Positions 10,034-50,958 of a DNA stretch of 64,000 nucleotides are shown in pieces. The translations under genes and the position numbers were made by a program. Source of the DNA: Promethearchaeota archaeon (lineage in GTDB: Archaea > Asgardarchaeota > Lokiarchaeia > Sigyniarchaeales > SOKP01); assembly GCA_048940645.1 (NCBI GenBank), contig JBHLOI010000011.1:18204-82203 (forward strand), read 5' to 3'. The notes beneath the pieces are model-generated. The model worked only from the letters and a program-made list of their open reading frames with translations, had not been told where the DNA came from and searched no databases. The stretch's first letter is position 1; every line of letters begins with the position of its first letter.

Positions 10034-10048
10034 TTTTTTCTTTAAATA
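10034..10048 (+). promoter_or_regulatory. T6C-TATA element
   Basis: TTTTTTCTTTAAATA in a divergent intergenic region, 53-62 nt before the 10094/10103 start. Confidence 0.7.
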
Positions 10049-10093
10049 TCCTCATAACTTCACATTATTTATCATAAAAAGTACAAATTTGAG

Positions 10094-11179
10094 TTGAAAA
10101 TTATGCAACTAGTAGAAGTTATAAGGGATATACAAACACGAATTCTAGAAAATCCAGATGAAATTATGAAATACATTCAAATTGGCATAAGTATCCCTAT
10201 ATTGCCAGAATTTTGGAAATATATGCGAAGTGATTTCGAAGAATACAATGCCAAATCGATCATTCTCGAAGAGGAAGTAGGTACAGAAACATTTGGAAAG
10301 ATGACCGATAAAGTAATTGGTCATACATTAGTCTATAATGACGGTGGGGATGTCTTATTTTTTGGATTTTTTAGGGTAATCGATCATGATCCGCGAAATA
10401 TCGAGGTTTTAGTAAATAGAATAATTGAGTATGCTCGTGAAAACGATTTCACTTCGATTCGAGGCCCCATTAATGTACCCACGGTCATTTTTGGATGGGG
10501 TTTTATGGTTGAAGGGAGTAGAAAAGATTTATTTATCGGCTCACCAGTAAATCCCCCAATTTATCAGAAAATGTTCATGGAAAAGGGGTTTACGATAAAA
10601 TTTCAAGAGGATAGATATTGGATGCCTGCTATGAAAATGGATCCATACCGTAATCCTGCTTTAAAAAAGAAAGGGGTAAATTTTGCAGAATATGAATTTT
10701 CCAATCCAGGGTTAGAAGGGATGATGCAAATCAAGGATGAGTATATCGAAATCCATGCAGACTATATGCCTCCTTCGGCAAAAATTACTCCCAAAGCATC
10801 AAAAAACTTTGATAATATTGTGGATTTCGTACATAGATATGGGACTAATTGGATGATGTGGATTGTGCGTCATAAAGCAACTGGGCAGCTTGCAGCCTGT
10901 GGTTACGTAATTCCAGATGTATTCCATAAAGACAGAAAAGGAGAACTTGACTCGATTAGCTTTCATGACTGGGTAGTCCATCCTAACCATCGTCGTAAAT
11001 ATCTCTCCATGCTAATGTACGGAGAAACTTCATTACGAGCAAAAGACCGAAAAACACCTCACTATATAAAACGGGGTTCATGGCCAGTGGGAGCTGACAA
11101 TATTGCCAATGCCAATGCTGCTAAAAAGATGGGCGGAAAAAAAGATAGAAGCCATGTAATATTACAATTGGAGTTATAA
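10094..11179 (+). CDS. GNAT-fold (YghO-like) N-acyltransferase
   Basis: FFGFF...RGPIN...GFMVEG...NPPIY...GF pattern; C-terminal VHPNHRRK and N..AN..AKKMGG acetyl-CoA-type motifs. Confidence 0.6.
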   Translation: MKIMQLVEVIRDIQTRILENPDEIMKYIQIGISIPILPEFWKYMRSDFEEYNAKSIILEEEVGTETFGKMTDKVIGHTLVYNDGGDVLFFGFFRVIDHDPRNIEVLVNRIIEYARENDFTSIRGPINVPTVIFGWGFMVEGSRKDLFIGSPVNPPIYQKMFMEKGFTIKFQEDRYWMPAMKMDPYRNPALKKKGVNFAEYEFSNPGLEGMMQIKDEYIEIHADYMPPSAKITPKASKNFDNIVDFVHRYGTNWMMWIVRHKATGQLAACGYVIPDVFHKDRKGELDSISFHDWVVHPNHRRKYLSMLMYGETSLRAKDRKTPHYIKRGSWPVGADNIANANAAKKMGGKKDRSHVILQLEL

Positions 11180-11227
11180 ATTAATTAGATTTTTTTTTAT
11201 TTTTATTTTATTTAAATTGTTATATAT

Positions 11228-11563
11228 TCATTCTTGATCAATTTTCTCTTTTAAACCATGATAAATAGTATTAATCCTTCCTCCTATTTGTTCTAAAAAT
11301 TCATTTCTTTCTTTTAGTTCTTTTAGCAACCTATCTGACGTTAAATTATGATGGGTATCATTTTCTAGCCTAACATACGAGGGGAAAAACTTTAATAGAT
11401 CCTCTTTCATTTTGATACGAGATTTTAGAATATATTCTCGAAGCTGCTTCTCGCTAATCTTTCCCGAAACTGCTTGATTAATAATGAGCTTTAATTTATA
11501 AAACTCCTCTTTTTTTAATAATACATCATCTAAAGCATCTTCTAATATGGTACTTATTTTCAT
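11228..11563 (-). CDS. Hypothetical protein, last gene of the 16836-11228 operon
   Basis: 111 aa ORF 7 nt downstream of the 1234 aa gene. Confidence 0.65.
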   Translation of the reverse strand: MKISTILEDALDDVLLKKEEFYKLKLIINQAVSGKISEKQLREYILKSRIKMKEDLLKFFPSYVRLENDTHHNLTSDRLLKELKERNEFLEQIGGRINTIYHGLKEKIDQE

Positions 11564-11570
11564 AGTATTA

Positions 11571-14500
11571 TCACCTATTTAAAAATTTTTTTAAGCTGAT
11601 ATACCAATCATACACCAAATTATACACTTCATTAGCTAAATGTTCCTGATTACCTGTTCTTAGCTCAATTTGCTCACACCTTTCGAATAAGCTTAATAAA
11701 TCATCAGCATAGAAAGGAAATCCTTGAATATCAGAAATTAGCTTGATAAACTCAACAACATTTTTTTTAGTAATTTCATTCTCAGGATGATAATAGTGAA
11801 GATAACACCTCTTAAAATAATCTGATAAAAACACTTTTAACATTTTAAGACTAGCAATAAATTGTTTATTTTCGATAAAATAGTTAATATTAAATAGATT
11901 TCGTAACATTTTTCCGTCAAAATTAAGCGTAAGTACGTTCTTAAGTCTTATTTGAGTTTCATGTGATAATTTAGGTGTTAAAAATCGGGGAACTCCAGAT
12001 GATTCCTTTTTAATTACATTAAATACAATATGACCCGGATTATTTGATTTCGCTTCATAATATTCCTGTATTGCTTTCTCATAAGCAGGACCAATAATTA
12101 GACAAGTCCTTGTAGATTGGCCACCTCCCGCAGCTCTGGGATGGTCTTCTACTAAATAATCATATCTTCGTAAAATTTCATAAATAGTATCTCGGATTAT
12201 CATAATTTGTTTTTTATTTTGAGAATAATTTTGAGAAATTTTGGGATGTAAATATTCCAAGAGCAATTTCTTTATTTTTTTTTCGTACAAGCCAGCAACA
12301 TTTTGTACAGCTTTTATTTGTTTAAAAAATCTAATTAATTCATTTCGATATTCGATGTATTCCCCTAAATCTCGTTCAAGCTTAGTTTTTTGAGCCAAGC
12401 TTAAAATCTTTTTTTCACTAAATTTCAAATCATAACCTAGGGTATCCATATGATCTACAATTTTATTATATTCCAATGGTTTCGCATTATTCACATCATC
12501 AATCAGGAGTATTACTGGAAATGACTGTTCCACGTCCGAACGTTTCATAAGTATTTGATTATGCTTTAAGTTTCGTAAGAAATGGATTTGATAATTCTCA
12601 TTCCTTGTGGAACTATAATATCCCGTCCCATGTAACTCATTTAAGTTTAACAGATTTGATAATGTGGCAATATCGCGTGAATCTGTGGTCCGAAAGGTCA
12701 CTAAATTGCTCAAAAATTTATATATATTAGGATGTAAATAGCGAATCTCATTTGCAGAGCAAATAATACCAAAGTTCTTTTCTTTTAAGGGATCAAAAAA
12801 CTTATCTATTAAACCATAATTTGCCACTTTATCTAAGTAGGCATTCTCAAAAACGATATCAACATGAGGGAGAAAAATAAATTTAGAGAAATATCGGGGT
12901 GAATTCTCACAGTAGCGGATTAATTTTGAAAGGACCAAAAACATAAGGTAACAGAGCGTTTTATAATCCTTTGAAATAGAAATATCTACAATAACCGTAT
13001 GATGAGTAGTGATGAATTCATGTACTTTCACTATATTCTCATCTGTAGTATGCAAAAACGTTAAATCTTCTTGAGAAATATCACTTAGAGTAGAGAGCAA
13101 TCCCTCAACAGTTGCATTTTTCTCATATTCTGGTTTGTGCTGAAGATCAATCTTTGCCAAATTTAAGTTTCCCCCATATTGACGAATACTATTTTTAAAG
13201 CTGTGCATAAAACGCTCATCTTTTCTAAAACTCATCGCATATGCCTCAAACATATACTCTAAATACTTGATATTATCATTTTCATAGGGAATTTCAGAAT
13301 CAAACGGATCTAGCGTAAAAGCCTTTCCTAATTTAAAATATAAGATATTCTGTTGAAACTTTGTATTTTCAAAGTAAGTTAGCAATCTTGACCATCTCCC
13401 GGTAAAATCAAAAATAAGGCAGGGGATTTCCTTTTTAATAAGTTCAGCAGCCATTTTCATATTAAGTAGTTCTCTATTAAAGTTTGTACCATTTGTAATC
13501 AATAAAGAATGAAGTTGTTCAAACAAAAATCCTGCTGGAACCTCTTCTCTCAATGTTTCTGTGTTTAAAGCGCGTCCAATTTCAATAAAATTGTCTAAAT
13601 GTAAGGGAGTATTAAACTCAGTTGCAATCTGGACATCTATTCCTTTCTTTAGTTCATTTGGGATGGTAATAATGCTTATAAGTGCAGTTCCTTGATACAC
13701 CACATGCCACAGGTGGGAGCCATTAGAATAAATATTATTGTTTTTTACCAGCTCGCATTGGAAACCAGATTCTAATAATTGTTTTTGAAGTTTGATCAAT
13801 TGAAATCTTTTAAAATTAGTTCGGAAGGTTTCCAGGAGTACAGTTCCCGCTTTATATAGCTGTTTATTAATGATGGATATAGATTTCGTGGAAACATGTT
13901 GGGTAGGTACACGAAATGAAGTTGAAAGTGAAAAAATTGATTCCCAAATACCACCACGTCTATCTAACCAATTATATCTATCCTCATCATTAAGTAACCG
14001 TCTTACGATGAAATTCCTTACTTTTTCACGAGTCTCCTTCGCATATTTCTTATCCACCTCAGCAAATGAAAGTGGACGGGAAATTGCTGTATAGGTAAAA
14101 GGTAGTTGATATCGGTTTACTCCTGAGAAAAATTTACTGAATGAACCAAATGGAGGCTTTAAAACCTTATTTACGGTGTACATTTTTATTCCGATTAATT
14201 CTTTGTTATCCATATGGGCAAAGAGAATATCAGGGATACGATTGGATAGAAAAAATCTTACATTTTGAAAGGGATCCACAACACTAATCTCTTGATAGTT
14301 AAAAAATTTTAAAGAGAATAGTTGAAAAAAGATGTTTTTCCACCAAATAATCAAGAGCACGGGGATGAAAATTATATTAAACATTATAATAAAAAGCATG
14401 GGAAAAGAAAGAAGTACGAAGTATGTATTGAAGATTACTAATAGTAGTGAGCTGAATATTGTTCTGAGTAGTGTAATTCTTTTACTAAAAGTGTTTAGAG

Positions 14501-15275
14501 TAGTTTTTTCAATAGAAACATCATTAAAGTCTTCTTGAAAAAGAGAAGATCTGATCGCGCCAATTATAGCATTACTTTTAAGAGATGTGACATGAAAATG
14601 ATGGTAATCGGAAGCAAATAAAGATTTAAGTTTTGCTCCGTAATGAAATAATTTTTCATTTAGTTGTCCAATTTTACGGGAATTTAGCGTCCCTTGTGTA
14701 GAGCTAAATACAACGATATAGATATAGGTCTTGAATGCTCCAGATCTTTTTTTGGTATGTACTACTTGATAGGTGAAGGGGACATACTCATTAATATCTG
14801 AAAATGCTTTTAAGAAATGCATTAGAGAGGGATGTACATTTTCAGCCATCACCCTAATAGAAAAGATTTTCATTCCAACTGTAAGAAGATCTTTATAATT
14901 TGTATAATACAATGTGCTTTGATCTTCCTTTATCTGCCAAAAAATGATATCCTTAAATGGATGGAACGTGGATTTCCCTCTCCATATAAAAAATGCTTCA
15001 TAAAAAACTAAGGAAAACCCTAACTCCAAGATAATTGTTAGACCTATTGTTAAATATAGGTTATTGCTCAAAAAATATGTCCCTATCATGAATAAAAAGC
15101 CAAAAATTAAGAGAAATATAGTCTTGCTTAAGGAATACTTTATGGAGATATCTCTCCGAGAAGGTTGTTTTTCCCAGATATATTGATATTGGAGTGATGA
15201 TTGAGAAGAATTCTTTTCTTTTTTCTTAGCAACTAATTTCTTTTCATGCAAATATTTTGTATAAAATTGGACCAT
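11571..15275 (-). CDS. Membrane-anchored VirB4/HerA(CedB)-like P-loop protein with degenerate Walker motifs
   Basis: Two TM-pair+domain repeats, then HSLLITNGTNFNRE (Walker A position), CLIFDFTGRW, FIFLPHVD (Walker B position), GIICSANEIRYLHPNI..LSNLVTFR, in HerA/VirB4 motif order. Confidence 0.65.
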   Translation of the reverse strand: MVQFYTKYLHEKKLVAKKKEKNSSQSSLQYQYIWEKQPSRRDISIKYSLSKTIFLLIFGFLFMIGTYFLSNNLYLTIGLTIILELGFSLVFYEAFFIWRGKSTFHPFKDIIFWQIKEDQSTLYYTNYKDLLTVGMKIFSIRVMAENVHPSLMHFLKAFSDINEYVPFTYQVVHTKKRSGAFKTYIYIVVFSSTQGTLNSRKIGQLNEKLFHYGAKLKSLFASDYHHFHVTSLKSNAIIGAIRSSLFQEDFNDVSIEKTTLNTFSKRITLLRTIFSSLLLVIFNTYFVLLSFPMLFIIMFNIIFIPVLLIIWWKNIFFQLFSLKFFNYQEISVVDPFQNVRFFLSNRIPDILFAHMDNKELIGIKMYTVNKVLKPPFGSFSKFFSGVNRYQLPFTYTAISRPLSFAEVDKKYAKETREKVRNFIVRRLLNDEDRYNWLDRRGGIWESIFSLSTSFRVPTQHVSTKSISIINKQLYKAGTVLLETFRTNFKRFQLIKLQKQLLESGFQCELVKNNNIYSNGSHLWHVVYQGTALISIITIPNELKKGIDVQIATEFNTPLHLDNFIEIGRALNTETLREEVPAGFLFEQLHSLLITNGTNFNRELLNMKMAAELIKKEIPCLIFDFTGRWSRLLTYFENTKFQQNILYFKLGKAFTLDPFDSEIPYENDNIKYLEYMFEAYAMSFRKDERFMHSFKNSIRQYGGNLNLAKIDLQHKPEYEKNATVEGLLSTLSDISQEDLTFLHTTDENIVKVHEFITTHHTVIVDISISKDYKTLCYLMFLVLSKLIRYCENSPRYFSKFIFLPHVDIVFENAYLDKVANYGLIDKFFDPLKEKNFGIICSANEIRYLHPNIYKFLSNLVTFRTTDSRDIATLSNLLNLNELHGTGYYSSTRNENYQIHFLRNLKHNQILMKRSDVEQSFPVILLIDDVNNAKPLEYNKIVDHMDTLGYDLKFSEKKILSLAQKTKLERDLGEYIEYRNELIRFFKQIKAVQNVAGLYEKKIKKLLLEYLHPKISQNYSQNKKQIMIIRDTIYEILRRYDYLVEDHPRAAGGGQSTRTCLIIGPAYEKAIQEYYEAKSNNPGHIVFNVIKKESSGVPRFLTPKLSHETQIRLKNVLTLNFDGKMLRNLFNINYFIENKQFIASLKMLKVFLSDYFKRCYLHYYHPENEITKKNVVEFIKLISDIQGFPFYADDLLSLFERCEQIELRTGNQEHLANEVYNLVYDWYISLKKFLNR

Positions 15276-15281
15276 AACTTA

Positions 15282-16148
15282 CTATTCCCCTCGCTTAAAT
15301 AATTTGCGATAGATAATAAAGAGAAGTAATGCTACCCCCAGAAAGGTAATTAGATACATGCTTAATACAGATACTAAATGCTGAAAGACTAACGACTCAT
15401 ATATGATAACAGCGTCTAAGAGAATGAAGACTATCACCCCCCCTAGAAGTAAATATTTAAGGCTTACCTGCTGAGAGATTTGATAATAGATATTATAAGT
15501 CAATTTTCCCGTAGCAGAAATACGTCCTTTAGATTTGTTTTTTAGAGAAGATTTTAATCTATTTAACTGTAAAGTTTGTTCAAAAGAATCTTTATTAAAG
15601 GAATCCTCCATTGACTTTCGTAATACTTTTTGTTTTTGTGCGATTTGTTGAAAAAGAAGAGATTTAACACGATCCCGATGATTAATTTTTTTCTTTCCTT
15701 TATTTGTTAAATATGAAAAGAGGTTTAAATCTGAATACTCATGCATATCTTTTGCTTCAAATGATTTGTATACGTTTGGAACATCAATCTTTCGTATTTC
15801 ATAATAAATTTCATAAAGTTCTTTGATATGATTATAGGGTAGGTCCCCTCTGAGCTTCATAAATAAAAGTTCTATGGTTTTTAGTGATTCGACAATTTCT
15901 TCAGGAACAATAATAACTTGTACAGATTTATAAAAAATTTGATTGATAAACTCGATATATTCAAATAAATGTTCATATTCAGTTTTTTTTCGGGCACGTA
16001 TTCCTAACTTAGCACTTATTTCATCTACTTTATTACTAATTAAGATTAGGCCTACTACTGCCAATTTTTTATAATTACCGGTAGCTTTGCATAACCGTAT
16101 TAAATTTTTTAGTTTTGAATCAGATAATTGAATATTCATTTTTATCAT
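15282..16148 (-). CDS. Hypothetical protein with two C-terminal TM helices
   Basis: 288 aa, tightly coupled in the operon; hydrophobic hairpin at C-terminus. Confidence 0.7.
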   Translation of the reverse strand: MIKMNIQLSDSKLKNLIRLCKATGNYKKLAVVGLILISNKVDEISAKLGIRARKKTEYEHLFEYIEFINQIFYKSVQVIIVPEEIVESLKTIELLFMKLRGDLPYNHIKELYEIYYEIRKIDVPNVYKSFEAKDMHEYSDLNLFSYLTNKGKKKINHRDRVKSLLFQQIAQKQKVLRKSMEDSFNKDSFEQTLQLNRLKSSLKNKSKGRISATGKLTYNIYYQISQQVSLKYLLLGGVIVFILLDAVIIYESLVFQHLVSVLSMYLITFLGVALLLFIIYRKLFKRGE

Positions 16149-16149
16149 T

Positions 16150-16836
16150 TCACCTTTTATAATCCTTTTTATGTTTATCTAGCTTTAGCTCCTCTTCTCT
16201 GATATATTTATCAAAATCCAGAGGTTCTTGAATTTTTTCAAGATAACGGTTAATTAAGTTTTCAGGAGAGTATGATTCCTTCTCGAATGAGTTTAACGTA
16301 TGGTAATAAAATATGGTATAAGGAAATAAAAGAATAAATCCAATTATTTGTATTAAATACCCAATATGAATTGTGTATAGAAATTGCACTTCTAGATTAG
16401 GATCATTCTGTTCTATAAATGGGAAATACAAATTATTTGGAAATAAATACCAAATAGGGTATATAAAGATATAGAAAGCGGTAAATAACACAGTGAAAAT
16501 GTGAATATATGCATAAAACCGTAATTTTTGAAATGGATGATCCTTCTCAATATCTTTAAATAAAACGCCAAATATAGAGAGGATTACCGATATAATAAAC
16601 AAAATTGTCATTGCAAGAGGTATAGAACTATTTTTTGGTTTATACAGTTCATTAAATATTGAACCAGAGGCAAATACAGGACTGTACCAATCAAAAAGTG
16701 GAGTATAACTCCAATAAATAACTTGTTCTCCTTCTATATTAAACCCTTGGAGAACATACCAATCTAAAAACAATGAAATTACAGCTAACACTAACCCAAT
16801 TACAAATAATTTCCTAAATATACTTTTTATTTCCAT
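16150..16836 (-). CDS. Membrane protein (about 4 TM), first gene of operon
   Basis: Hydrophobic helices; T6C-TATA element upstream. Confidence 0.7.
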   Translation of the reverse strand: MEIKSIFRKLFVIGLVLAVISLFLDWYVLQGFNIEGEQVIYWSYTPLFDWYSPVFASGSIFNELYKPKNSSIPLAMTILFIISVILSIFGVLFKDIEKDHPFQKLRFYAYIHIFTVLFTAFYIFIYPIWYLFPNNLYFPFIEQNDPNLEVQFLYTIHIGYLIQIIGFILLFPYTIFYYHTLNSFEKESYSPENLINRYLEKIQEPLDFDKYIREEELKLDKHKKDYKR

Positions 16837-16869
16837 ATTGATTATCCCTTAGTAAGGCTAGGTTGTAAG

Positions 16870-16884
16870 TATATAAAGAAAAAA
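16870..16884 (-). promoter_or_regulatory. T6C-TATA element
   Basis: Minus strand TTTTTTCTTTATATA, 41 nt before ATG 16836. Confidence 0.7.
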
Positions 16885-16891
16885 TCACTAC

Positions 16892-18598: not shown

Positions 18599-18621
18599 AC
18601 ATAGAATAAGTTTTATGTTTA

Positions 18622-18636
18622 TATTTAAAGAAAAAA
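18622..18636 (-). promoter_or_regulatory. T6C-TATA element (leaderless spacing)
   Basis: Minus strand TTTTTTCTTTAAATA, 31 nt before ATG 18598. Confidence 0.75.
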
Positions 18637-18649
18637 TTTTTTCTATTTC

Positions 18650-41729: not shown

Positions 41730-41750
41730 TTTTTAGTAACATTTTTTCTC

Positions 41751-41972: not shown

Positions 41973-41993
41973 TATAGTATTTCTATTTACATT

Positions 41994-43094: not shown

Positions 43095-43098
43095 CCAA

Positions 43099-43113
43099 TT
43101 TTCCTTTATAAAT
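43099..43113 (+). promoter_or_regulatory. T4CC-TATA element
   Basis: TTTTCCTTTATAAAT, 62 nt before ATG 43167. Confidence 0.55.
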
Positions 43114-43166
43114 AACCATTTTATGGAATTGGTAAACAATTCTTTTCCATTCCATATTGATGAGTT

Positions 43167-43763
43167 ATGGCAGATACTATCGCAAAAAAGTTAATGCCCA
43201 CTAGTGTTTTAGTAAAAATTCTTCTTGATTTTTCCTCAAAATCTACGGTATTGAATTACCTATTCCGGAAAAAAAGTTTCGTTGATTCCCATGAAAATAT
43301 CTTAGTTCTTTCCGATTTCACTATTAATAAAATTTCCCAAGAAGTAAATGTTCCTTTTGATACAACCGAAGGAATTATTATCCAATGTTTACTTAATATG
43401 TTTTACTTTAAACGTGCCTTAAATTGTGTTAGATTCATATGGAACAATGATATGGAAAAACTCAGGCGGAGATTAAGGGTATATTTATATAAAGCACATC
43501 GAATTGCTCCTGTGTTTGATTATAAACGAGCCAGGACAAATAGTGAAACTCTCATTACATTAATGAAGAGGAGTTGCTATTTCCCGCGATTCACTACTCA
43601 GCTTGCTTTAGTAATATATGTAACTGATGCGAATAACCAGCATAAAATCTTTGATACGCCCATTCTCCAGCGGAATCTACGAGCTTTTTGCGATTGTTCT
43701 GCATTTGCCTTTCATCGAGCAAGAAATAAGTTGAGAATAAATAATCAAGGTAAAACTTATTAG
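43167..43763 (+). CDS. Protein with C-terminal TFB-like cyclin/HTH repeat, no zinc ribbon
   Basis: QLALVIYV...LQRNLRAFCDCSAFAFHRARNKL aligns gap-free to the TFB pattern AAAALYI...TQREVAEVARVTEVTVRNRYKEL. Confidence 0.5.
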   Translation: MADTIAKKLMPTSVLVKILLDFSSKSTVLNYLFRKKSFVDSHENILVLSDFTINKISQEVNVPFDTTEGIIIQCLLNMFYFKRALNCVRFIWNNDMEKLRRRLRVYLYKAHRIAPVFDYKRARTNSETLITLMKRSCYFPRFTTQLALVIYVTDANNQHKIFDTPILQRNLRAFCDCSAFAFHRARNKLRINNQGKTY

Positions 43764-43888
43764 ATTTTTTCTGTGCTAATGGACAACTGCTTTAAAAACA
43801 TAAAAAACATATTTATTACCAAAATTGTTATATTTTGAATTTCCTTATTTTTTTATTGATAAAATAAGACAAAAAAGAGGAATCTGAG

Positions 43889-44293
43889 TTGAAGGATAAA
43901 ATTAAGCTTACATTGCCATTAGTTACTTTAAAAATATTAAATAGTCTTTGTATTCTGTTCAGTGCATTTATATTGATAAGTACTTTAAGAGCTTTGTATT
44001 TTCTCACTGCTGATCCTCCAGATTTACCCTGCCTTATGTGTGAGGGATGCCCCTGTCCACCTAGTGATTTTGTTATAGCCAGAAATTATTATCTTAATTT
44101 CTTGTTCCCAACGTTGATTTTCTCAAATATAATATTGATTGCTCTTTGTATCATTTTAATTTCAATTTTGAAATTTAAATATAGCTTCCTCAAATTAACT
44201 CTTTTTATAAAAAAGTATGGAAAAAGTGAGGATTTATTCAAAGCATATAAATCTACAATCCAATCTAATGATTTTAACCTTAAATATAGATGA
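43889..44293 (+). CDS. Two-TM protein with Cys/Pro-rich loop
   Basis: PPDLPCLMCEGCPCPP between TMs. Confidence 0.55.
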   Translation: MKDKIKLTLPLVTLKILNSLCILFSAFILISTLRALYFLTADPPDLPCLMCEGCPCPPSDFVIARNYYLNFLFPTLIFSNIILIALCIILISILKFKYSFLKLTLFIKKYGKSEDLFKAYKSTIQSNDFNLKYR

Positions 44294-44332
44294 TTTAAGA
44301 ATAATTATTCTTAGAAGTGTTTATTTAGAGTA

Positions 44333-45661
44333 TTACTTTTTCATATTTTTTAATTTTAATTTTCTCGATTTTAAAAAATTTTGAAATTCAAAATCACTTA
44401 TTTTATCTGCTTCGAGGGCTCCCGTACTTTCTAGATACTTTTTAAAATCTTTAATAAGAGAGATAACTTCTTCTTGTTTAAAATTTTCTTTAAAAATGAA
44501 ATTATTTCGCTCTAAAATAAATTCAGAATACCACCAATAAAATATGACAGTTATAAGTATAATTAGGAAATTGTTTACTAAACTAATCTGACTTTGACTA
44601 GCATAAGTTCCTGAGATTGAACCAGCTCCAATAATCATAATGATTTGCCCTTCAAAATATAAAATTGTGAATGCAAAAAGGAAAAATGATAAATTATTGG
44701 GAGTAAATATCTTAAATCTGAAAAGTTTACCTCCTAAACCCTTTAAGACCAAAATTGCTGTTAAAATCATTAAAAGAATGTCAATAACTACTCTGAAAAA
44801 ATCGAATCCATGGATTTCTGTTACTCTTCTAAACGACCAAATGAAACTAAACGATCTATACCATAAGTAAAGCCATATAAATATGTAAAATAATGAAGAA
44901 AAAACGTTTGGCGTTTCATTTTTAATGCTTTTAATAAATAAGTTAATTACTTTATAAGAGGTTATGATTATGATAATATACATTGCTATATTCCATCCAT
45001 TAAACCAATAAATTGGTTCTAATGAATCTCCTGGACTTTGAATTTCAAAATAATTTAATAATCCAAAATAAGTACTTAATTGGAACACAATTGGTAATAT
45101 TAATCCAATAGTTAAGAATACGTAACTGTATATTCTACTAATATTGGACTCTCTATTTCTAGTTATTAATATATCATTAGCTTTATTCGAAATGCTAACC
45201 ATAATTTTTCTAATAAAGAAAATCTGGATCAAATTCCACCCAAAATAAATAATAACACATGAATATGGTAGTATTATATCCCAACCTAAAAACTGAACTG
45301 GTATTTGTGAAGAGGAGCCAAAGAAGAAATAGATTAATATTAAAATTAAGCAAATTCCAAAAGTAATCATTAGGATTGTAAGCTTTTTTATGGTATGTTT
45401 TCTTTCTTTTGAGAATATTTGAGCCTCCATTTGAGGGATCATACTAATAAACATTAAGATTAAATAAGTAAGAGTAAAGGAAATGGTTACAATCAAGACA
45501 ATATTACCGATATCCTCTTTTGGATAAAGGCTAAGAACAGTAATTACAATTATAATTAAAAAAAATAAAATCGTATAAATAATATGACTATGTTCAAATA
45601 ATCTGTGAAATCTTGTTTTAATAGTTTCTTTATCCTTTATAGTATTAATATTTTCATTCAT
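44333..45661 (-). CDS. Polytopic membrane protein (about 10 TM)
   Basis: Hydrophobicity pattern; no family recognised. Confidence 0.7.
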   Translation of the reverse strand: MNENINTIKDKETIKTRFHRLFEHSHIIYTILFFLIIIVITVLSLYPKEDIGNIVLIVTISFTLTYLILMFISMIPQMEAQIFSKERKHTIKKLTILMITFGICLILILIYFFFGSSSQIPVQFLGWDIILPYSCVIIYFGWNLIQIFFIRKIMVSISNKANDILITRNRESNISRIYSYVFLTIGLILPIVFQLSTYFGLLNYFEIQSPGDSLEPIYWFNGWNIAMYIIIIITSYKVINLFIKSIKNETPNVFSSLFYIFIWLYLWYRSFSFIWSFRRVTEIHGFDFFRVVIDILLMILTAILVLKGLGGKLFRFKIFTPNNLSFFLFAFTILYFEGQIIMIIGAGSISGTYASQSQISLVNNFLIILITVIFYWWYSEFILERNNFIFKENFKQEEVISLIKDFKKYLESTGALEADKISDFEFQNFLKSRKLKLKNMKK

Positions 45662-45705
45662 AGCTCTAATAGTTAAATTATTTCGATAATATTATTTCTA
45701 ACTCA

Positions 45706-45720
45706 TTTTTTCTTTAAAAA
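45706..45720 (+). promoter_or_regulatory. T6C-TATA element
   Basis: TTTTTTCTTTAAAAA, 55-61 nt before the RPA start, divergent context. Confidence 0.65.
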
Positions 45721-45767
45721 TATTTATTATAATTTTAACTTATCTGTCTATTTATTAATATAAAGAG

Positions 45768-46694
45768 TTGATTATGAGTTCATACATGGAAGAGATATAT
45801 CAAAAACTTATTGAACATGGTTTTTCAAAAAAGGAATTAGAAAACGAAATTAATAAGAAAGCAAAGGAATATGGTGGATTTATGTCTAAGCAAGGTATCC
45901 TTTTTATCATTGCTAAAGAATATGGAATGAATATTAATTCTCCAGAAATAGAGACAGAGCTTTATCAGAAGGTTGAGGAGAATATAAACTATGATGAATT
46001 TACTATTCCTATTTCCAATCTCAAAGAAGGCATGGAAAATGTAGTGTTATTGGGTAAAATTTTAAAATATGTTCCTCCAAAAGAATTTCTACGTAAAGAT
46101 AATTCCATTGGGGCAATTTCCTCATGTATTATTGGTGATAATTCAGGGGATATAAAAGTTGTCATGTGGGATGAAAAAGCAATAGCAATGAATAATGATT
46201 CTTCTAAAGAGGGCGAATTAGTAAGAGTAATTAGTGATTATATCAAAATAAATCGAAATGGAAACCTAGAAGTTCATGTAGGAAAAAAAGGCAAGATCAT
46301 TTTAGCACCTAGAGATATAAATTCAAAGATTAAAAAAAAATTAGCAGAAATACCATATAAAAGGAAGGAATTCAATAATCATTTTTCAATTAGTGATCTA
46401 ATCAATAAATATTCGTTTATTCAAAAATTAAAAGGACAGGTTCACATTAAAAAATTCAAGGAAATTACCAAAAAGGATGGTGAAAAAATGTTTTTATTAA
46501 AGCTAATTTTGAGTGATGATACTGGATCTGTTTGTATGAATATTTGGGGTATGAACGCTATAGAAACTTTGAAACTTATTGAAGAAGGAGATCATATTAT
46601 TGTAAAAAATCTTTCTGTAAAATTCAATTCTTATACTAGTGAAAAGGAGCTTTCCTTTACTAAAAAATCTACCTTAGAAGTAGTTTCTTTTTAA
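45768..46694 (+). CDS. rpa: Replication protein A / SSB with two OB folds
   Basis: N-terminal helical domain (KAKEYGGFMS...IIAKEYG); OB folds ISNLKEG..NV.LLGKI...GDNSGDIKVVMW and LSDDTGSVCMNIWG. Confidence 0.85.
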   Translation: MIMSSYMEEIYQKLIEHGFSKKELENEINKKAKEYGGFMSKQGILFIIAKEYGMNINSPEIETELYQKVEENINYDEFTIPISNLKEGMENVVLLGKILKYVPPKEFLRKDNSIGAISSCIIGDNSGDIKVVMWDEKAIAMNNDSSKEGELVRVISDYIKINRNGNLEVHVGKKGKIILAPRDINSKIKKKLAEIPYKRKEFNNHFSISDLINKYSFIQKLKGQVHIKKFKEITKKDGEKMFLLKLILSDDTGSVCMNIWGMNAIETLKLIEEGDHIIVKNLSVKFNSYTSEKELSFTKKSTLEVVSF

Positions 46695-46767
46695 AAGAAT
46701 TTACTGAAAAAAAAGTCCCACTCTCTATGTTCTTACTTTAATTATTTGATATTCTTTTGTTCAATTG

Positions 46768-47088
46768 TTAATTTATACTTTCTTTCTTCTTTAATAATCG
46801 GTCCTTATATTGATTTGCCTTTGGATGAGTGGGTGTTATTTCTAAGGCTTTTTCATAATATTTTAAAGCTTCCTGATAATTTCCCATCTTCTCATAGGTT
46901 TTACCCAACATTACCCAACCAGTATCGTATTTAGGGTTTATAGTTAGTACTTTCATCCAATTTTCAATTGTGTTATCATAATTTTTAGAAAAAGAATATT
47001 TAACAGCTTGATGAAAGTATTTATTATAATCCTCTACCTTTATCTCCTCTTCTTCTTCATTTTTTTCTTCTTTTTTAGGAATATTCAT
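46768..47088 (-). CDS. Small TPR protein
   Basis: INPKYDTGWVMLGKTYEKMGNYQEALKYYEKALEITP. Confidence 0.8.
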   Translation of the reverse strand: MNIPKKEEKNEEEEEIKVEDYNKYFHQAVKYSFSKNYDNTIENWMKVLTINPKYDTGWVMLGKTYEKMGNYQEALKYYEKALEITPTHPKANQYKDRLLKKKESIN

Positions 47089-47183
47089 TACCTCTTAAAG
47101 TAATTTACATTGAACATTCTTTATAATTTGTATATTGGGATTCAAATATTTATAAGTATTATTGTGAATATCTCATTTTCAAT

Positions 47184-47198
47184 TTTTTTCTTTAAATA
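47184..47198 (+). promoter_or_regulatory. T6C-TATA element
   Basis: TTTTTTCTTTAAATA, 51 nt before ATG 47242, inside the over-extended 47110 ORF call. Confidence 0.7.
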
Positions 47199-47241
47199 CT
47201 ACTGCTTAACTCTTCTTATAAAATACGAAAGATGTGATAAA

Positions 47242-47775
47242 ATGTCATTTTATGTACCAAAAGTATTATATGAAAATGAAATTGCTGAAGTGCTAGATGA
47301 AATTCGATATAGCTATGGAAAGTTAACGAGAAAGGGATTTATTTACGGTCTAATTGCTATCGATCAAGATGCAAAAATTATTGCAATCGATTCACGATTT
47401 GATCGTAAATTGAATTATTGGGATTTGAGCTCTATTGGAGCAGCATTATATGGAGTTGCTCGTCAAGCTCAAGATTTCTTTGATACTCAAGCTTTAATTA
47501 GAGCCACATTGATTTTTAAAGATTTACAATTATACGTTAAATCGGTCGGTTATGTGGATCTTCCACAAAAGGGAAAGAGAGAGATCTTAGTTATCTTATT
47601 GGTTAACAATGAAGTAAATATTGGTGTTCTTATTTTACAAATGACCAAATTCGCAGAAAAAATTCGCAATGCCATTAAAAGAAACAATGAAGTAATGACT
47701 AAATTAGAAATGAATGAAGCAGAGCTTAAGAAATATCTTAAAAATCTAAAACAGAAGGTATTTGGATCTACATAA
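47242..47775 (+). CDS. Roadblock/LC7 (MglB-like) domain protein (start revised to MSFYVP)
   Basis: LIAIDQDAKIIA...LSSIGAALYGVARQA...ILVIL...VNIGVL Roadblock pattern; directly upstream of an MglA-like GTPase. Confidence 0.75.
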   Translation: MSFYVPKVLYENEIAEVLDEIRYSYGKLTRKGFIYGLIAIDQDAKIIAIDSRFDRKLNYWDLSSIGAALYGVARQAQDFFDTQALIRATLIFKDLQLYVKSVGYVDLPQKGKREILVILLVNNEVNIGVLILQMTKFAEKIRNAIKRNNEVMTKLEMNEAELKKYLKNLKQKVFGST

Positions 47776-48478
47776 GACATTTATGGAGGAGGATATCATA
47801 TTGTCAGTAGGTTCAAATGATGTAGAAGATATTAAGAAGAGTGAAATAGAAATGAGCAAGGAAACTACTCCAAAGGCTCTTAAGGAAATTTTACAATTTA
47901 AAATTGTATACTGGGGTCCGGGTGAATCTGGAAAAACAACCAATTATTTTCGATTACGTGAAAAGTTTAATGGAATAATATTAAATAAAGGAGTCTCAAT
48001 TGAAACTACGGATGGAAGAACTCTATGGCAAGATTCTATTAGAATTTCTTTCTTTCTAAATCTTGGAGATGTAAAATTCAACATAATTGCTCAGATAGTA
48101 ACATGTACCGGTCAAGAACGCTTTCTCCAAACCAGAGAATATGTACTTGATGGAGCCGACGGAGTGGTTTTTGTTGGAGATTCTAAATATCAAAAAATGG
48201 AACAAAATAAACGTAGCTTTCGGGAATTAGTAAGCTTTACCAAGAAGACTAAAATTCCTTATGTAATACAACTAAATAAGAGAGATATAGAGGATGCCAT
48301 AGCAATTGAAGAGTTTAAAAAGCAACTAGGTTTACCATCATCTGATTTTTATAAAGATGGAACAGCAGTGGTGTATCCAGTAATTGCATTAAGTGGAGAA
48401 AACGTAAAAGAATGCTTTGAAGATTTGATTATTCAGGTTATCTTCAATTATTTTAAGAATAAACTCAATCTAATTTAA
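47762..48478 (+). CDS. mglA: MglA-family small GTPase (true start may be ATG 47783 or 47852)
   Basis: KIVYWGPGESGKTTN, T.DGRTLWQD, TCTGQ, VLDGADGVVFVGDS, QLNKRD. Confidence 0.85.
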   Translation: MDLHKTFMEEDIILSVGSNDVEDIKKSEIEMSKETTPKALKEILQFKIVYWGPGESGKTTNYFRLREKFNGIILNKGVSIETTDGRTLWQDSIRISFFLNLGDVKFNIIAQIVTCTGQERFLQTREYVLDGADGVVFVGDSKYQKMEQNKRSFRELVSFTKKTKIPYVIQLNKRDIEDAIAIEEFKKQLGLPSSDFYKDGTAVVYPVIALSGENVKECFEDLIIQVIFNYFKNKLNLI

Positions 48479-48504
48479 GTTTTAATTGAACCATTATTTT
48501 TTAG

Positions 48505-49683
48505 GTGGATCCTTTGGATACGGGTTATGATTTTATACAACCAGAATTTTTAAACATTCTGTTCTTTCAACAAAAAAGCCTAGTTATAGCTCCCTATGTA
48601 GATTTGAAACATCTTCATTCTCTTGAAATTTTCACAGTCGGTTATAACGTAGTTGATTTAGATTCCACAGCACTACATAATATCAGTGAGATCGTTGAAC
48701 TAGAAAATAATAATTCTTATTCTCAAACTCCATGCTTCTTCTTTATAACTAATATTAACAGCAATCAACTTCATGAAATAATAGAATTAGATAATATCCA
48801 TTGCGTTATTAATGCATGTGAGAAAATTGATTCCACCATTAATAATGGACGTTTTGTTTTTTATAATAAAAAGAATGGATCTTTTTTAAATTATGATCCA
48901 ACTAAAATTAATTTAGAATTTGAAAAACAGCTAATTAATAATTCTAAAAATAAATCTATTTTGCAGGATAAAATTTTGCGAATAAAAAGTATTGCTACCA
49001 CTATTTTCACTGAATTGAATGAAGAATTAAACATAAATAGCCGTAAAATTTCTCAGATCCTCTCTGAATATGATCCTAAATATTGGGATAAAATCCTTGA
49101 TTTTACACGACGCTATTATAAAATTGAGATTCCTAAAGCTGATATTAAGTTCTCTTTCAACAAAAAATCAAAACATTCAAATAAAAAATCGTTAATTGAT
49201 TTCTCAGATGAGTATCATACTATTGTATCTAGCAATAAAAAACTTGGTCGTGAATTTATTCAACTACTTCATGATTACCGCAGCAGAAGAGTAAATCCTT
49301 CAAATTTAGATTTGGAACAACTATATAATCCTCAAAAACTCTATGAATATTTACGAAATAATCATTGGAAAAATGGAATTGATCGGGAATTTTTAACTGA
49401 ATGGCAAAGAATGAACAATACAAAATATACATTAGATAAGGATGATCTCTCTGATTTTTATAGAATATTTAACATTCTTAAAGTTCCTGAGGATATATTA
49501 ATCAATTTCTCAACAGAAATAATGAATTATGATGAGCCTTTTGCCAGTAACAAAGAAGTAATATTTTCAGAACAAAATAATAATAAAGACTCGCAATCTA
49601 ATTCAAATCCTTCAATTAAAAACTTCCCACAATTCAAAAAATGGGTATTAAAAAAATTAGATGAAATTGAAAAATTGCTTTAA
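48505..49683 (+). CDS. Hypothetical protein, probably co-transcribed with mglBA
   Basis: 392 aa ORF 26 nt after mglA; no motif recognised. Confidence 0.7.
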   Translation: MDPLDTGYDFIQPEFLNILFFQQKSLVIAPYVDLKHLHSLEIFTVGYNVVDLDSTALHNISEIVELENNNSYSQTPCFFFITNINSNQLHEIIELDNIHCVINACEKIDSTINNGRFVFYNKKNGSFLNYDPTKINLEFEKQLINNSKNKSILQDKILRIKSIATTIFTELNEELNINSRKISQILSEYDPKYWDKILDFTRRYYKIEIPKADIKFSFNKKSKHSNKKSLIDFSDEYHTIVSSNKKLGREFIQLLHDYRSRRVNPSNLDLEQLYNPQKLYEYLRNNHWKNGIDREFLTEWQRMNNTKYTLDKDDLSDFYRIFNILKVPEDILINFSTEIMNYDEPFASNKEVIFSEQNNNKDSQSNSNPSIKNFPQFKKWVLKKLDEIEKLL

Positions 49684-49689
49684 TTACAA

Positions 49690-49705
49690 TTTTTTCCTTT
49701 AAATA
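49690..49705 (+). promoter_or_regulatory. T6CC-TATA element (leaderless spacing)
   Basis: TTTTTTCCTTTAAATA, exactly 29 nt before ATG 49727. Confidence 0.75.
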
Positions 49706-49726
49706 AGTTTAGTTAATAAAAAAATT

Positions 49727-50113
49727 ATGATGATTCAAGAACCAATTAAAAGGAAAACAAATCTACCTGTTGCACAATGTAGAATATGTCATACTGATAC
49801 AAAAAAACAATCTAAAATCTTAAAATTGGGAAATAATTATGAGATAATTTGTAGTGAATGCTCCAAAATGTTTTCACTTGAAGACATTCATTTAATGTAT
49901 AATATGTTTACTGCCTTTGGTGGATATTTCGGGATGCTAAAAGATACTGTATCTTCTACATATAAAATTATAACCAAATTAGTAAAAGAATATGATTTAC
50001 AAGAAAAGGATTTAAAACCAACTGAAGTTGATGTAAAAGTTCTTTATAAAGCATTGCTCTACGGTATTACTCCGAGGCAGCTAATACAAGGTGTTAAATT
50101 GCTACATGAGTAA
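49727..50113 (+). CDS. C4 zinc-finger protein, paralog of 36733..37113
   Basis: CRIC...ICSEC...FSLEDI...FGGYFG...KALLYGITP. Confidence 0.75.
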   Translation: MMIQEPIKRKTNLPVAQCRICHTDTKKQSKILKLGNNYEIICSECSKMFSLEDIHLMYNMFTAFGGYFGMLKDTVSSTYKIITKLVKEYDLQEKDLKPTEVDVKVLYKALLYGITPRQLIQGVKLLHE

Positions 50114-50219
50114 TTTCTAATTAAGATAGAATTATCATATTATCTGAAAAAATTTTAGAGATCTTTAAATAATGAGAATCATACATTTTTTTTAGTAGAC
50201 TTATATCCGGTTTACAAAA

Positions 50220-50399
50220 ATGGATAAGGAATATCACTGTCCTCGATGTCAAAATCGTAATATAATTGAATATCAGGATTCAATTGAATGCCCTAGATGT
50301 GAGCTTGATTTTGATAAAAAAGATTTAACACTCTATGACGATGATCAAATTCTTTCTCTTCAAGAAAAATCAGGTTTCATTAATTCTTTTGATGATTAA
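50220..50399 (+). CDS. 59 aa zinc-ribbon microprotein MDKEYHCPRC...IECPRCELDF... (not in ORF track)
   Basis: Two CPRC motifs in an intact ATG-TAA frame. Confidence 0.7.
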   Translation: MDKEYHCPRCQNRNIIEYQDSIECPRCELDFDKKDLTLYDDDQILSLQEKSGFINSFDD

Positions 50400-50487
50400 C
50401 GACATTAAAAAATTCTTAATTGTATTTAAAAATAAAAAAATTAATTCTCTCTCTTTTATTATTAAAGTTCTTTTTTTTTAAGTTTAT

Positions 50488-50958
50488 ATGGAAAAACCAA
50501 TCTCATATTTTGATTGGAAATTACATTTTCGGAATAATCTTCCTCATAAAAATAGAAAAAAATCAGCTAATACCAAATCGATTTCTTTAAATGAATTTAA
50601 AGAGTTATTACAGAACTTTTATAAAAAAGAGAGTCTACTTAAAAGTGGAGGGATATTATCTTCTCAATTTGATTTTCAAAATTTAAATTTATCTAATGGA
50701 ATGATTATATGTACTATTAAAAATCCATCTGCTCAGGATTATGAAATTGAGATTAATAAAGAAGGCATGTATATACACCATAGATGTCAAGAATTTCGGA
50801 ATCTCAATAAATTTGAAAAATATTTTTGTTCTCATATAATACGGTTATTCTTCATATTAAAGGAAAATGATAGACAGAAAACAGAAGATTTATTAGATCA
50901 TATATCTTCAAATGACTACAATTTCTTCCCAAACATTAAAAAAAAGACAAAGAAGTAA
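50488..50958 (+). CDS. SWIM-like zinc-finger protein
   Basis: YEIEI...HHRCQEF...FCSHI (HxC...CxH). Confidence 0.6.
   Translation: MEKPISYFDWKLHFRNNLPHKNRKKSANTKSISLNEFKELLQNFYKKESLLKSGGILSSQFDFQNLNLSNGMIICTIKNPSAQDYEIEINKEGMYIHHRCQEFRNLNKFEKYFCSHIIRLFFILKENDRQKTEDLLDHISSNDYNFFPNIKKKTKK

Follow-up and report, generated by a model that had tools for sequence, protein, structure and literature searches.

A candidate alternative-TFB regulon of membrane and recombination genes in a Lokiarchaeial family

The window analysed here, 64,000 nucleotides (64 kb) of a contig from a Promethearchaeota archaeon, holds a 43-kb island inserted between the genes for carbamate kinase and ornithine carbamoyltransferase (Table 1). 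The island encodes a TFB, membrane and surface proteins, paralogues of recombination enzymes and small conserved or Cys-rich proteins, and many of its transcription units begin at the same promoter element. We found no published description of the island.

Table 1. Features of the island and its flanks, by position in the window.
Positions	Strand	Feature	Remarks
8965..9870	-	Carbamate kinase	island flank
9871..52849	.	Whole island	43 kb
10035..10048	+	Element	before 10094-11179
10094..11179	+	Soluble protein	distant paralogue of 25289-26512
11228..11563	-	111-aa protein	final gene of membrane operon
11571..15275	-	1234-aa membrane protein	two TM hairpins, VirB4/TrwK/HerA-fold domain
15282..16148	-	288-aa protein	C-terminal TM hairpin
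16150..16836	-	228-aa polytopic membrane protein	first gene of membrane operon
16870..16883	-	Element	before membrane operon 16836 to 11228
16892..18598	-	568-aa protein, (HhH)2 domain, two TM segments	PF14520, E 7e-10; TM prediction
18622..18635	-	Element	before HhH membrane protein gene
18650..20131	-	B12-binding radical SAM enzyme	not conserved across the orthologous islands
20176..20190	-	Variant element, one extra T	before radical SAM gene
20222..20235	+	Element	before 20271 and Hel308-like gene
20271..20576	+	101-aa four-Cys protein	5' of Hel308-like gene; conserved into sister family
20558..23116	+	Hel308-like Ski2 helicase paralogue with insertion	canonical copy on C53 31% identical
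24173..24967	+	Two small conserved proteins	138 aa and 86 aa
24650..24663	+	Element	before 24707-24967
25226..25239	+	Element	before 25289-26512
25289..26512	+	407-aa soluble protein	kept in all islands examined
26547..27050	-	Zn-ribbon protein	DUF1922/DUF5817
27050..29203	-	Hef paralogue, helicase part only	NF010337 positions 4-555 of 781
29209..29793	-	194-aa protein	first gene of Hef operon
29816..29829	-	Element	before operon 29793 to 26547 (194 aa, Hef helicase, Zn ribbon)
29929..32268	-	779-aa protein	N-terminal signal/TM, C-terminal TM anchor, alpha/alpha-toroid (prenyltransferase-like) domain
32314..32327	-	Element	before gene of 779-aa surface protein
32362..33627	-	Island TFB	Zn ribbon, shortened B-reader, two cyclin repeats, HTH
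33628..34211	-	TFB gene control region	~200 nt conserved
34212..34225	+	Element, CC variant	before operon 34247..36069
34247..36069	+	Operon	7-TM protein (259 aa), 112-aa protein, RadB/KaiC-like ATPase (235 aa)
36698..36712	+	Element	before 36733-37113
36733..37113	+	126-aa Cys-rich protein	paralogues at 49727-50113 and on C24
37145..37158	+	Element	before RadA paralogue gene
37232..38461	+	RadA paralogue	extra C-terminal HhH domain; canonical copies 41% identical
39197..40520	-	Operon	105-aa nine-Cys protein; 338-aa protein, TM segments at both termini
40567..40580	-	Element	before 40520 to 39197
40655..40668	+	Element	before 74-aa two-TM ORF
40690..40914	+	74-aa pilin-sized protein	two hydrophobic helices; 29-nt promoter spacing
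40936..41349	-	137-aa three-TM protein	paralogue on C12
41356..41370	-	Variant element	directly 5' of three-TM gene as called
41384..41397	+	Element, G variant	before 49-aa basic ORF (41450-41599)
41716..41729	+	Element	before 31-aa one-TM ORF
41751..41846	+	31-aa single-TM micro-ORF	predicted via promoter spacing
41959..41972	+	Element	before FEN1 paralogue gene
41994..43094	+	FEN1 paralogue	canonical copy on C37 33% identical
43099..43112	+	Element, CC variant	before 43167-43763
43167..43763	+	198-aa basic protein
45707..45720	+	Element	before RPA-like gene
45768..46694	+	RPA-like OB-fold protein	C43 copy 30% identical
47185..47198	+	Element	before operon 47245..49683
47245..49683	+	Operon	Roadblock/LC7-like (177 aa), small Arf/Ras-like GTPase (238 aa), 392-aa protein
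49692..49705	+	Element, CC variant	before 49727-50113
49727..50113	+	128-aa Cys-rich protein	paralogue of 36733-37113
52850..53782	-	Ornithine carbamoyltransferase	island flank

The membrane operon encodes a 1234-aa protein that the initial annotation had called VirB4/HerA-like. A search of its sequence profile against the PDB gave no match. Its AF2 model (pLDDT 71) has a RecA-like ATPase fold with a VirB4-type N-domain, and Foldseek ranked TrwK/VirB4 at the top (E 1e-9), followed by HerA, T. pseudethanolicus VirB4 and TrwB. The likeness holds for the fold, but the Walker A motif GxxxxGK[ST] is absent from 24/24 orthologues, whose consensus at that position reads ITNGT...RE. Without a P-loop the protein cannot be a motor, and for this reason no active translocase motor was found for the membrane machine. 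The membrane-tethered HhH protein described at the outset was confirmed, and the likeness of the 74-aa peptide to a pilin is one of size and two hydrophobic helices only. The membrane and surface proteins evolve fast, with 27-40% identity compared with ~80% for the flanking genes.

For each of the island recombination genes, the rest of the genome contains a more canonical counterpart that is 30-42% identical to it. The RadA paralogue matches PF08423 (E 7e-70) and HHH_5 twice, and scores 321.9 bits against the curated RadA model NF003301 (cut-off 259). Divergent RadA, FEN1 and Hel308-like proteins are present as annotated, the RPA-like protein can be described as OB folds, and the RadB-like protein returned a weak match only. 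Similarly, the Hef paralogue has the expected helicase part but no Pfam match to the ERCC4 nuclease domain, and of a proposed MglAB pair the small GTPase stands while the Roadblock match is weak (E 0.011). A second gene pair like 10094-11179 and 25289-26512 is present on contig C11.

The genome carries nine canonical TFB genes besides that of the island. The island protein was not detected by PF00382 at a threshold of E 0.01 and matches the Pfam model Zn_Ribbon_TF only at E 1e-3. Alignment with canonical TFBs by hhalign (probability 97.7%, E 1.3e-12) extends over 253 columns that start at the Zn ribbon, reach the HTH and include both cyclin-fold repeats, and the best Foldseek matches of a low-confidence structure model (pLDDT 56) are TFIIB, TFB and Brf chains. 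The ribbon cysteines C25, C28, C42 and C45 align with the canonical ribbon and are invariant in 11 orthologues. In the shortened B-reader region YHRPYN stands in place of the (W)RAF/RAY of canonical paralogues, the HTH recognition helix, which does not vary within the island family, reads RMSTIHKQVE rather than the canonical TEVTLRxRYK, and a C-terminal extension of ~130 aa follows. The helix, as MSTIH[KR]QV, is among the best-conserved stretches of the island TFB family and served as a search pattern. Together these results agree with the initial annotation that the block encodes a divergent TFB: it is a genuine TFB, and strongly divergent.

The T6C element described below is absent from the control region of the TFB gene. 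This region contains a purine-rich stretch with TTTAAAAA and, after an SD-like GGAGGTGA, a short ORF; the gene has its own separate promoter, which is purine-rich and BRE/TATA-like. Judged by its sequence, such a distinct promoter would fit a regulatory cascade.

The island promoter element is T-rich, ends in C and lies directly 5' of the TATA box (TTTTTTC-TTTAWATA). The exact pattern TTTTTCTTTWWAWA has 64 matches genome-wide, 16 of them within 10034-50958, where 0.68 would be expected from a region making up 1.07% of the genome (P 6e-17). A looser pattern used for counts, TTTT[TC][CG]TTT[TA]?WWAWA, has 177 matches genome-wide; all of those in the window lie inside the island (22/22, expected 2.0, P 1.5e-16), and the 21 kb of island flanks in the window contain none. 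Since the reversed control pattern has 162 genome matches (3 on the contig of the island), the element outside the island is at background level. Furthermore, T4[TC]C precedes the TATA box in only 1/229 non-block ORFs having a TATA box at leaderless spacing, and therefore the element is not a generic promoter. The shared non-canonical element that had been proposed is real, block-specific, far above chance and not equally common at other promoters.

Twenty sites were mapped by a PWM scan and two one-base variants were read from upstream sequences. Over these sites the distance from the start of the TATA box to the start codon is 29-81 nt, with leaderless spacing of 29-31 nt at seven. All 22 sites are intergenic, between called ORFs, and every mapped element points toward a gene or small ORF. 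The true start of the three-TM gene at 40936-41349 is probably downstream of the called TTG. With few exceptions, the block genes that lack the element are genes missing from other islands.

The VirB4-like gene is found in 88/121 genomes of the order and 76/101 of the family, and the island TFB in 73/101 of the family. Island gene order is colinear in relatives, and the element recurs only within orthologous islands (five congeners and four other genera). By these sequence comparisons the island, its TFB and the element are conserved together across genera of one Lokiarchaeial family. The genes for the VirB4-fold protein, the HhH membrane protein and the polytopic partners are syntenic with the recombination enzymes across the family, and in a sister family the VirB4-fold protein still adjoins recombination genes. 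Island promoters of the sister family carry TTTYG-N-TTTTAWAWA instead, with 5/20 genome matches within 18 kb of a 6-Mb genome, and the helix of the sister-family island TFB reads [TS]ASTVY... The element and the recognition helix thus differ together between the two families. Linkage is not universal, as the nearest island-TFB homologue in the closed genome G051 is 1.2 Mb from the island. In G085 and G088 the VirB4-like gene is present and the TFB was not detected; since the G085 contig ends 2.3 kb past the VirB4-like gene, absence of the TFB there cannot be concluded.

One rival reading takes the island for a mobile element that came from a conjugative plasmid or a virus and is by now domesticated, or else still selfish. 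In that case the private TFB and promoters would drive a programme of the element itself, and the set of RadA, mediator, SSB, FEN and helicase would serve its own recombination-dependent replication or integration rather than host DNA exchange; the gene set does resemble the recombination-dependent replication kit of phage T4. The two flanking genes are adjacent, 130-160 bp apart, in the congeners G008 (C26) and G016 (C22), an empty site from which it follows that the island moved as a block. Copy number also varies: G008 contains the island three times, with similar coverage for each copy, and in G120 (10 contigs) there are two VirB4-like genes, an island-type TFB lying ~19 kb from one of them. 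The fast divergence of the membrane and surface proteins and the VirB4 fold, a hallmark of conjugation, point the same way, as do the TFBs encoded by Asgard mobile elements and WyrdV1 (bioRxiv 10.1101/2021.07.29.453957). Against this, no integrase, transposase, Orc1/Cdc6, primase, polymerase or capsid gene was matched by Pfam in the island, and searches found no terminal direct (att) repeats, no tRNA gene, no PHROG match for 10 unknown island proteins and no IMG/VR relative of the island TFB. The VirB4-like gene, with its dead P-loop, is widespread in the family and single-copy in the closed genomes G102, G038 and G051. In a quick, unrooted tree of 24 rows it respects genus boundaries, the two genera splitting with one change (support 99), and the island appears to follow the genus phylogeny by vertical inheritance, with no incongruence with the host. 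We therefore consider a mobile element rather unlikely. That mobility genes are missing was correctly noted at first; the description as a resident chromosomal system agrees with the vertical inheritance and missing integrase but not with the 43-kb insertion here or the two to three copies in some genomes.

An intracellular programme for DNA damage or replication stress, in which no DNA crosses the membrane and the membrane proteins have unrelated roles or else tether or sequester DNA or repair foci, is unlikely. The enzymatic cargo is indeed one of repair and recombination, a UvrA-like gene elsewhere in the genome bears the element, and no active translocase motor was found; but the synteny of the membrane genes with the enzymes reaches into the sister family for the VirB4-fold protein, the surface proteins evolve fast, in the manner of recognition proteins, and the genome already has a full canonical repair set. 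It is distinctly unlikely that T6C is not read by the island TFB and is instead the operator of another regulator overlapping the BRE, or a T-tract tuning TBP bending, with the TFB-like protein as cargo or, as TFB3, a non-DNA-binding co-factor. Such a reading could draw on the unlinked TFB of G051, on several small Zn/Cys-rich island proteins that could bind DNA, and on G063 (99% complete), which has 15 strict element matches versus 3 control matches and in which neither the island TFB nor the VirB4-like gene was found. However, the element abuts the TATA box at the exact BRE position with fixed polarity, the protein keeps both cyclin repeats and the HTH with its conserved helix, and helix and element change together between families. 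An anti-virus defence island of HerA-fold and Ski2-type helicase modules seems highly improbable: HerA-fold proteins are known in Sir2-HerA and DUF4297-HerA systems and the Hel308-like protein matches Hachiman HamB helicase models (E 1e-43), yet PADLOC matches are confined to the generic SF2 helicase core; neither the VirB4-fold protein nor those unknown proteins that were searched gave any, the Pfam matches include no HamA, Sir2 or effector nuclease, and RadA, RPA and FEN1 are not defence modules.

An alternative-TFB regulon has partial counterparts elsewhere. Bacterial competence sigma factors (ComX/SigX, SigH) join a dedicated initiation factor and a private promoter element to DNA-uptake and recombination genes, as proposed here; in contrast, their initiation machinery is unrelated, and the island regulon is one contiguous 43-kb block. 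TFB3 is truncated, without the DNA-binding cyclin core, acts alongside TFB1 and has scattered targets with no private BRE, whereas in the island TFB both cyclin repeats are retained, as is an HTH, with a new helix; its candidate targets share one block and a private element, and the VirB4-like protein is P-loop-less. Like the Ced system of Sulfolobales and Ted of Thermoproteales, the island encodes, on the chromosome and by vertical inheritance, a VirB4/HerA-fold membrane protein that has polytopic and small hairpin membrane proteins as neighbours. By TM layout, the 228-aa polytopic protein and the 74-aa two-helix peptide might be candidates for a CedA/VirB6-like protein and a CedA1/TedC/VirB2-like pilin. 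CedB and TedB are active ATPases, unlike the island protein, and the island has in addition a complete recombination toolkit and a TFB of its own. In the DNA-damage response of Sulfolobales TFB3 drives the Ced DNA importer and Ups pili (PMC6101594, PMC6101591), a parallel to the proposal here, with a TFB paralogue turning on a conjugation-related membrane DNA-import machine together with repair functions (PMC6101594, PMC6101591, PMC9905601). The cell-cycle factor TFB2 of Sulfolobus acidocaldarius is likewise a full-length paralogue with its own regulon, although its BRE resembles that of TFB1, differing mainly in spacing (bioRxiv 10.64898/2026.09.06.749720), while the island element belongs to another sequence class, pyrimidine-rich and C-ended. 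Extra TFBs also occur on discrete DNA blocks in Asgard mobile elements and WyrdV1 (bioRxiv 10.1101/2021.07.29.453957); the gene sets of these elements include integrases, PCNA, primases or capsid genes, and CRISPR spacers target them, in contrast to the island, which has no such genes and whose TFB has no relative in IMG/VR.

Based on these comparisons, the reading as an alternative-TFB regulon is well supported, and the island is probably switched on as one unit. Under some upstream signal a housekeeping TFB would transcribe the island TFB gene from its ordinary purine-rich BRE/TATA promoter. The island TFB, with its rewritten helix and the single TBP, would then read the pyrimidine-rich T6C directly 5' of the TATA box, and ~22 mostly leaderless transcription units would fire at once, much as under an alternative sigma factor. 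One part of the cargo would be a membrane complex of the P-loop-less VirB4/HerA-fold protein, polytopic and hairpin proteins and the HhH DNA-binding membrane protein, which would also take in the small hydrophobic peptides and rapidly evolving surface proteins. The other would be a private recombination set of RadA, RadB-like and RPA-like proteins, FEN1, the Hel308-like helicase and the helicase-only Hef. We infer that the island TFB reads the element, that the island genes are co-expressed and that DNA is moved. The explanation that we favour, somewhat tentatively, is a vertically inherited, self-contained alternative-TFB regulon of a Lokiarchaeial (Promethearchaeia) family for membrane DNA uptake or exchange and recombination. 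Its most likely purpose would perhaps be DNA exchange, with DNA taken up or exchanged at the membrane and then recombined.

The 100 nt upstream of every ORF were read for promoter signals, and a recurrent sequence, WTTTTTTC-TTTAWATA, was found in which a T-rich stretch ending in C (T6C) lies directly 5' of the TATA box. The window belongs to a 3.83-Mb MAG (G000; 126 contigs, 29.8% GC) with 64 matches to the exact pattern TTTTTCTTTWWAWA, 16 of which lie inside the block that was originally delimited, 1.07% of the genome (P 6e-17). The roughly 60 small-GTPase paralogues of this MAG fit a Loki-type Asgard archaeon. A looser pattern allowing CC, G and one-base variants returned 177 genome matches against 162 for its reversed control, and all 22 of its matches in the window fall within the island; thus essentially all of the excess of the element sits in the island. 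These 22 sites are all intergenic, lying between called ORFs, and the mapped sites face a start codon. At seven of them the TATA box starts 29-31 nt upstream of the start codon, a leaderless spacing, and at the others 41-81 nt upstream; micro-ORFs of 74, 31 and 49 aa are predicted from promoter spacing. A comparison set of 229 ORFs outside the block, which also have their TATA box at leaderless spacing, shows a slight excess of A in the bases upstream, and T4[TC]C precedes the TATA box in just one of them. The pattern counts and their control therefore confirm the shared non-canonical promoter element proposed in the initial annotation, which had also raised its genome-wide frequency as a point to be checked. 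Upstream regions of tRNA genes gave no consensus for a canonical BRE, with only 16 tRNAs found. The block genes that lack the element (at 23137, 38560, 43889, 44333 and 46768) are also absent from most other islands.

The TFB encoded in the island is highly divergent. Pfam gives only a weak Zn-ribbon match, and the protein escapes PF00382, a model that detects nine canonical TFB genes at other places in the genome. A profile of 11 island-TFB orthologues matched the canonical paralogue profile along 253 columns that run from ribbon to HTH (E 1.3e-12, 97.7% probability). The best PDB sequence matches are to TFIIB cyclin 1, and a low-confidence model (pLDDT 56) best matched TFIIB, TFB and Brf chains. 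The protein has a shortened B-reader and continues for about 130 residues beyond the HTH. In its recognition helix, RMSTIHKQVE stands in place of the TE[VA]T[IL]RxR[YV]K of the canonical proteins, and MSTIH[KR]QV is one of two conserved stretches picked as a pattern by the search tool. In public data the family comprises 456 clusters at 50% identity, of which 139 have E values of 1e-30 or lower. Against its nine canonical TFB genes, G000 has only one TBP with two repeats and, on contig C83, a 420-aa open frame containing just one such repeat, a haloarchaeon-like TFB expansion in an Asgard genome.

The T6C element was not found in the 620-nt region upstream of the TFB gene itself. About 200 nt of this region are conserved in six species (G000 aligned with loci L002-L006) whose TFBs are 61-89% identical. 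In the conserved stretch, TTTAAAAA is immediately preceded by a run rich in purines; there are also an invariant CACTCC(C/T)CATCTTC, a pair of GATCAWGAGGA boxes, and a short ORF whose length varies, with an SD-like GGAGGTGA ahead of it. The stretch may be the site of a regulator or encode a leader peptide. A structured RNA is not claimed here, the consensus fold being weak (-5.7 kcal/mol).

Features of the window and related loci (window positions unless a contig is named)
Feature	Location	Strand	Remark
Small GTPase	2622-3158	+	about 60 paralogues across the genome
Carbamate kinase	8965-9870		left flank
Island	9871-52849
Block originally delimited	10034-50958
Looser element matches	10035-49705		22 sites
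Soluble protein	10094-11179
VirB4-like membrane protein	11571-15275	-	1234 aa
Soluble protein	25289-26512
Island TFB	32362-33627	-
Conserved TFB upstream region	33628-33900	-
7-TM protein operon	34247
Three-TM gene	40936
TPR + RING-like zinc-finger protein	51165-52715	-	right edge of island
Ornithine carbamoyltransferase	52850-53782		right flank
Window in G000	C104:18204-82203
Satellite locus (L029)	C12:1-15705		five elements
Paralogues of the two soluble proteins (L035)	C11:152144-155433		adjacent
Isolated element (L034)	C46:24075-26096
Isolated element (L033)	C83:19629-20960
RadA fragment in G032	C1:1881456-1881839		131 residues

Comparison with related genomes, a check suggested in the initial annotation, showed gene order and motif conserved together with this TFB clade. 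The island is colinear in four congeners (G019, G010, G008 and G016) and is also present beyond the genus (in G076, G120 and G102, and partially in G059), and the element is present again in the relatives' islands and nearly absent from their flanks. The congener G018 has an eroded island (contig C17, L013-L016) at the chromosomal site that the island occupies in G000; this version lacks RadA, FEN1, RPA and Hef, retains the VirB4-like and Hel308-like genes only as truncated copies missing most of their sequence, and keeps the TFB and several promoter elements. Of 121 genomes in the order, 88 yielded the VirB4-like gene; of 101 in the family, 73 yielded the island TFB. Neither was detected in G063 (99% complete), where strict element matches number 15 versus 3 for the control. 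In G085 and G088 the VirB4-like gene is present and no TFB was detected; the G085 contig stops 2.3 kb beyond the gene.

In the sister family, the closed genomes G038 and G051 carry a core cluster consisting of the VirB4-like gene, Hel308-like, Hef and RadA paralogues, Roadblock and GTPase genes, and two small Cys proteins. G038 additionally has a TFB (22% identity); the TFB homologue of G051 is not linked to its cluster. A PWM of the island element has no match in either cluster. Instead, the cluster promoters share TTTYG-N-TTTTAWAWA, with 5 of 20 genome matches inside 18 kb of 6.03 Mb in G051 and 3 of 13 in G038, and the TFB helix in this family reads [TS]ASTVY[ST][HR]xK. In G032, a closed 4.4-Mb genome of the same family, island queries recovered no VirB4-like gene and no island TFB; a fragment of an island-type RadA is present, 62% identical to island RadA. 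Together the comparative evidence supports well, short of proof, the candidate alternative-TFB regulon put forward in the initial annotation.

The promoter element allows annotation of regulon micro-ORFs and satellite loci. On contig C12 of G000, an 11-kb stretch contains five island-type elements, placed ahead of unknown genes and marking a satellite locus of the regulon; its genes include paralogues of the 7-TM and three-TM genes and a 671-aa AAA/mad8-like ATPase, and a 728-aa gene has a relative inside the G008 island. Isolated strong matches on C46, C83, C7, C117 and C119 precede genes for a 673-aa UvrA-like protein, a LAGLIDADG protein and three large unknown proteins, possible outlying members of the regulon.

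Every recombination protein of the island has a more canonical copy elsewhere in the genome, at 30-42% identity, and many of the island's products are membrane or surface proteins. The VirB4-like protein was recognised by fold search only, its soluble part having a fold like TrwK/VirB4, HerA and TrwB (pLDDT 71; Foldseek E 1e-9); Walker A is absent from all 24 orthologues, and PDB profile searches with this protein and with the 407-aa and 392-aa proteins gave nothing usable. Between G000 and G008 the enzymes are 58-86% identical, the membrane parts 27-39%, and the two flanking genes 79-83%. Paralogues of the two soluble proteins, 40% identical to the product of 25289-26512 and 35% to that of 10094-11179, adjoin on C11, which suggests from gene order that the two products may act as a pair.

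A virus or provirus was rejected as the main reading, since the 10 largest unknown proteins have no PHROGs match and the TFB has no relative in IMG/VR. A defence island was likewise rejected, the PADLOC matches being to the generic helicase core only. The island had also been described as a resident system without mobility genes, and this holds in part. It is bracketed by ordinary metabolism genes, no integrase, att repeat or tRNA gene was found in it, a repeat search for att sites across it returned only the promoter element itself, and the window contains no tRNA gene and no Rfam family. A quick, unrooted tree of the VirB4-like protein separates two sampled genera by a single change (support 99). 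What did not hold is a fixed position: in G008 and G016 the same two flanking genes lie 130-160 bp apart and the island is at another place, and therefore the whole block relocated in the lineage of G000, G018, G010 and G019. The two genes are 6 kb apart in G102. The TPR/RING-like protein at the right edge belongs to a family represented 15 or more times in the genome, including twice on this contig upstream of the window, and such repeats could mediate rearrangements. Copy number varies, with one VirB4-like gene each in the closed genomes G102, G038 and G051 and two to three copies in G120 and G008. The three G008 island copies (DNA 75-87% identical) lie on three contigs of similar coverage in a MAG with 9% contamination, and either true paralogy or a mixed bin would account for them; in G120 (10 contigs), two VirB4-like genes, one about 19 kb from an island-type TFB, point to true paralogy.

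No paper describing the island was found. As precedents, TFB3, which drives Ced and Ups (PMC6101594, PMC6101591, PMC9905601), and TFB2 (bioRxiv 10.64898/2026.09.06.749720) come nearest, and TFBs are carried by Asgard MGEs (bioRxiv 10.1101/2021.07.29.453957). If the alternative-TFB regulon is correct, it would provide the clearest example to date of a TFB paralogue in archaea that alters which promoter sequence is recognised, as opposed to acting through spacing or co-activation; initiation factors of the archaeal and eukaryotic type would then act like bacterial sigma factors, with a cis code readable from the genome. The hypothesis is testable. In the closed 6.03-Mb sister-family genome the core cluster is present and has a private element of its own.

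DNA exchange is a plausible function of the island. We regard as unlikely a Lokiarchaeia parasexual cycle in which a master TFB reading a BRE code of its own would act as a developmental-type switch for species-specific cell-cell recognition, DNA transfer via a conjugation-derived, ATPase-dead membrane scaffold, and recombination by dedicated RadA, RPA, FEN1 and helicases. Such private recombination machinery would resemble in its logic the split between meiotic and mitotic paralogues, Dmc1 versus Rad51. The Lokiarchaeia are closely related to the ancestor of eukaryotes and belong to the archaeal lineage nearest to eukaryotes. The island joins a conjugation-related membrane machine to a second, private recombination toolkit in that lineage; should it carry out DNA exchange, it would have a bearing on gene flow and recombination before meiosis.
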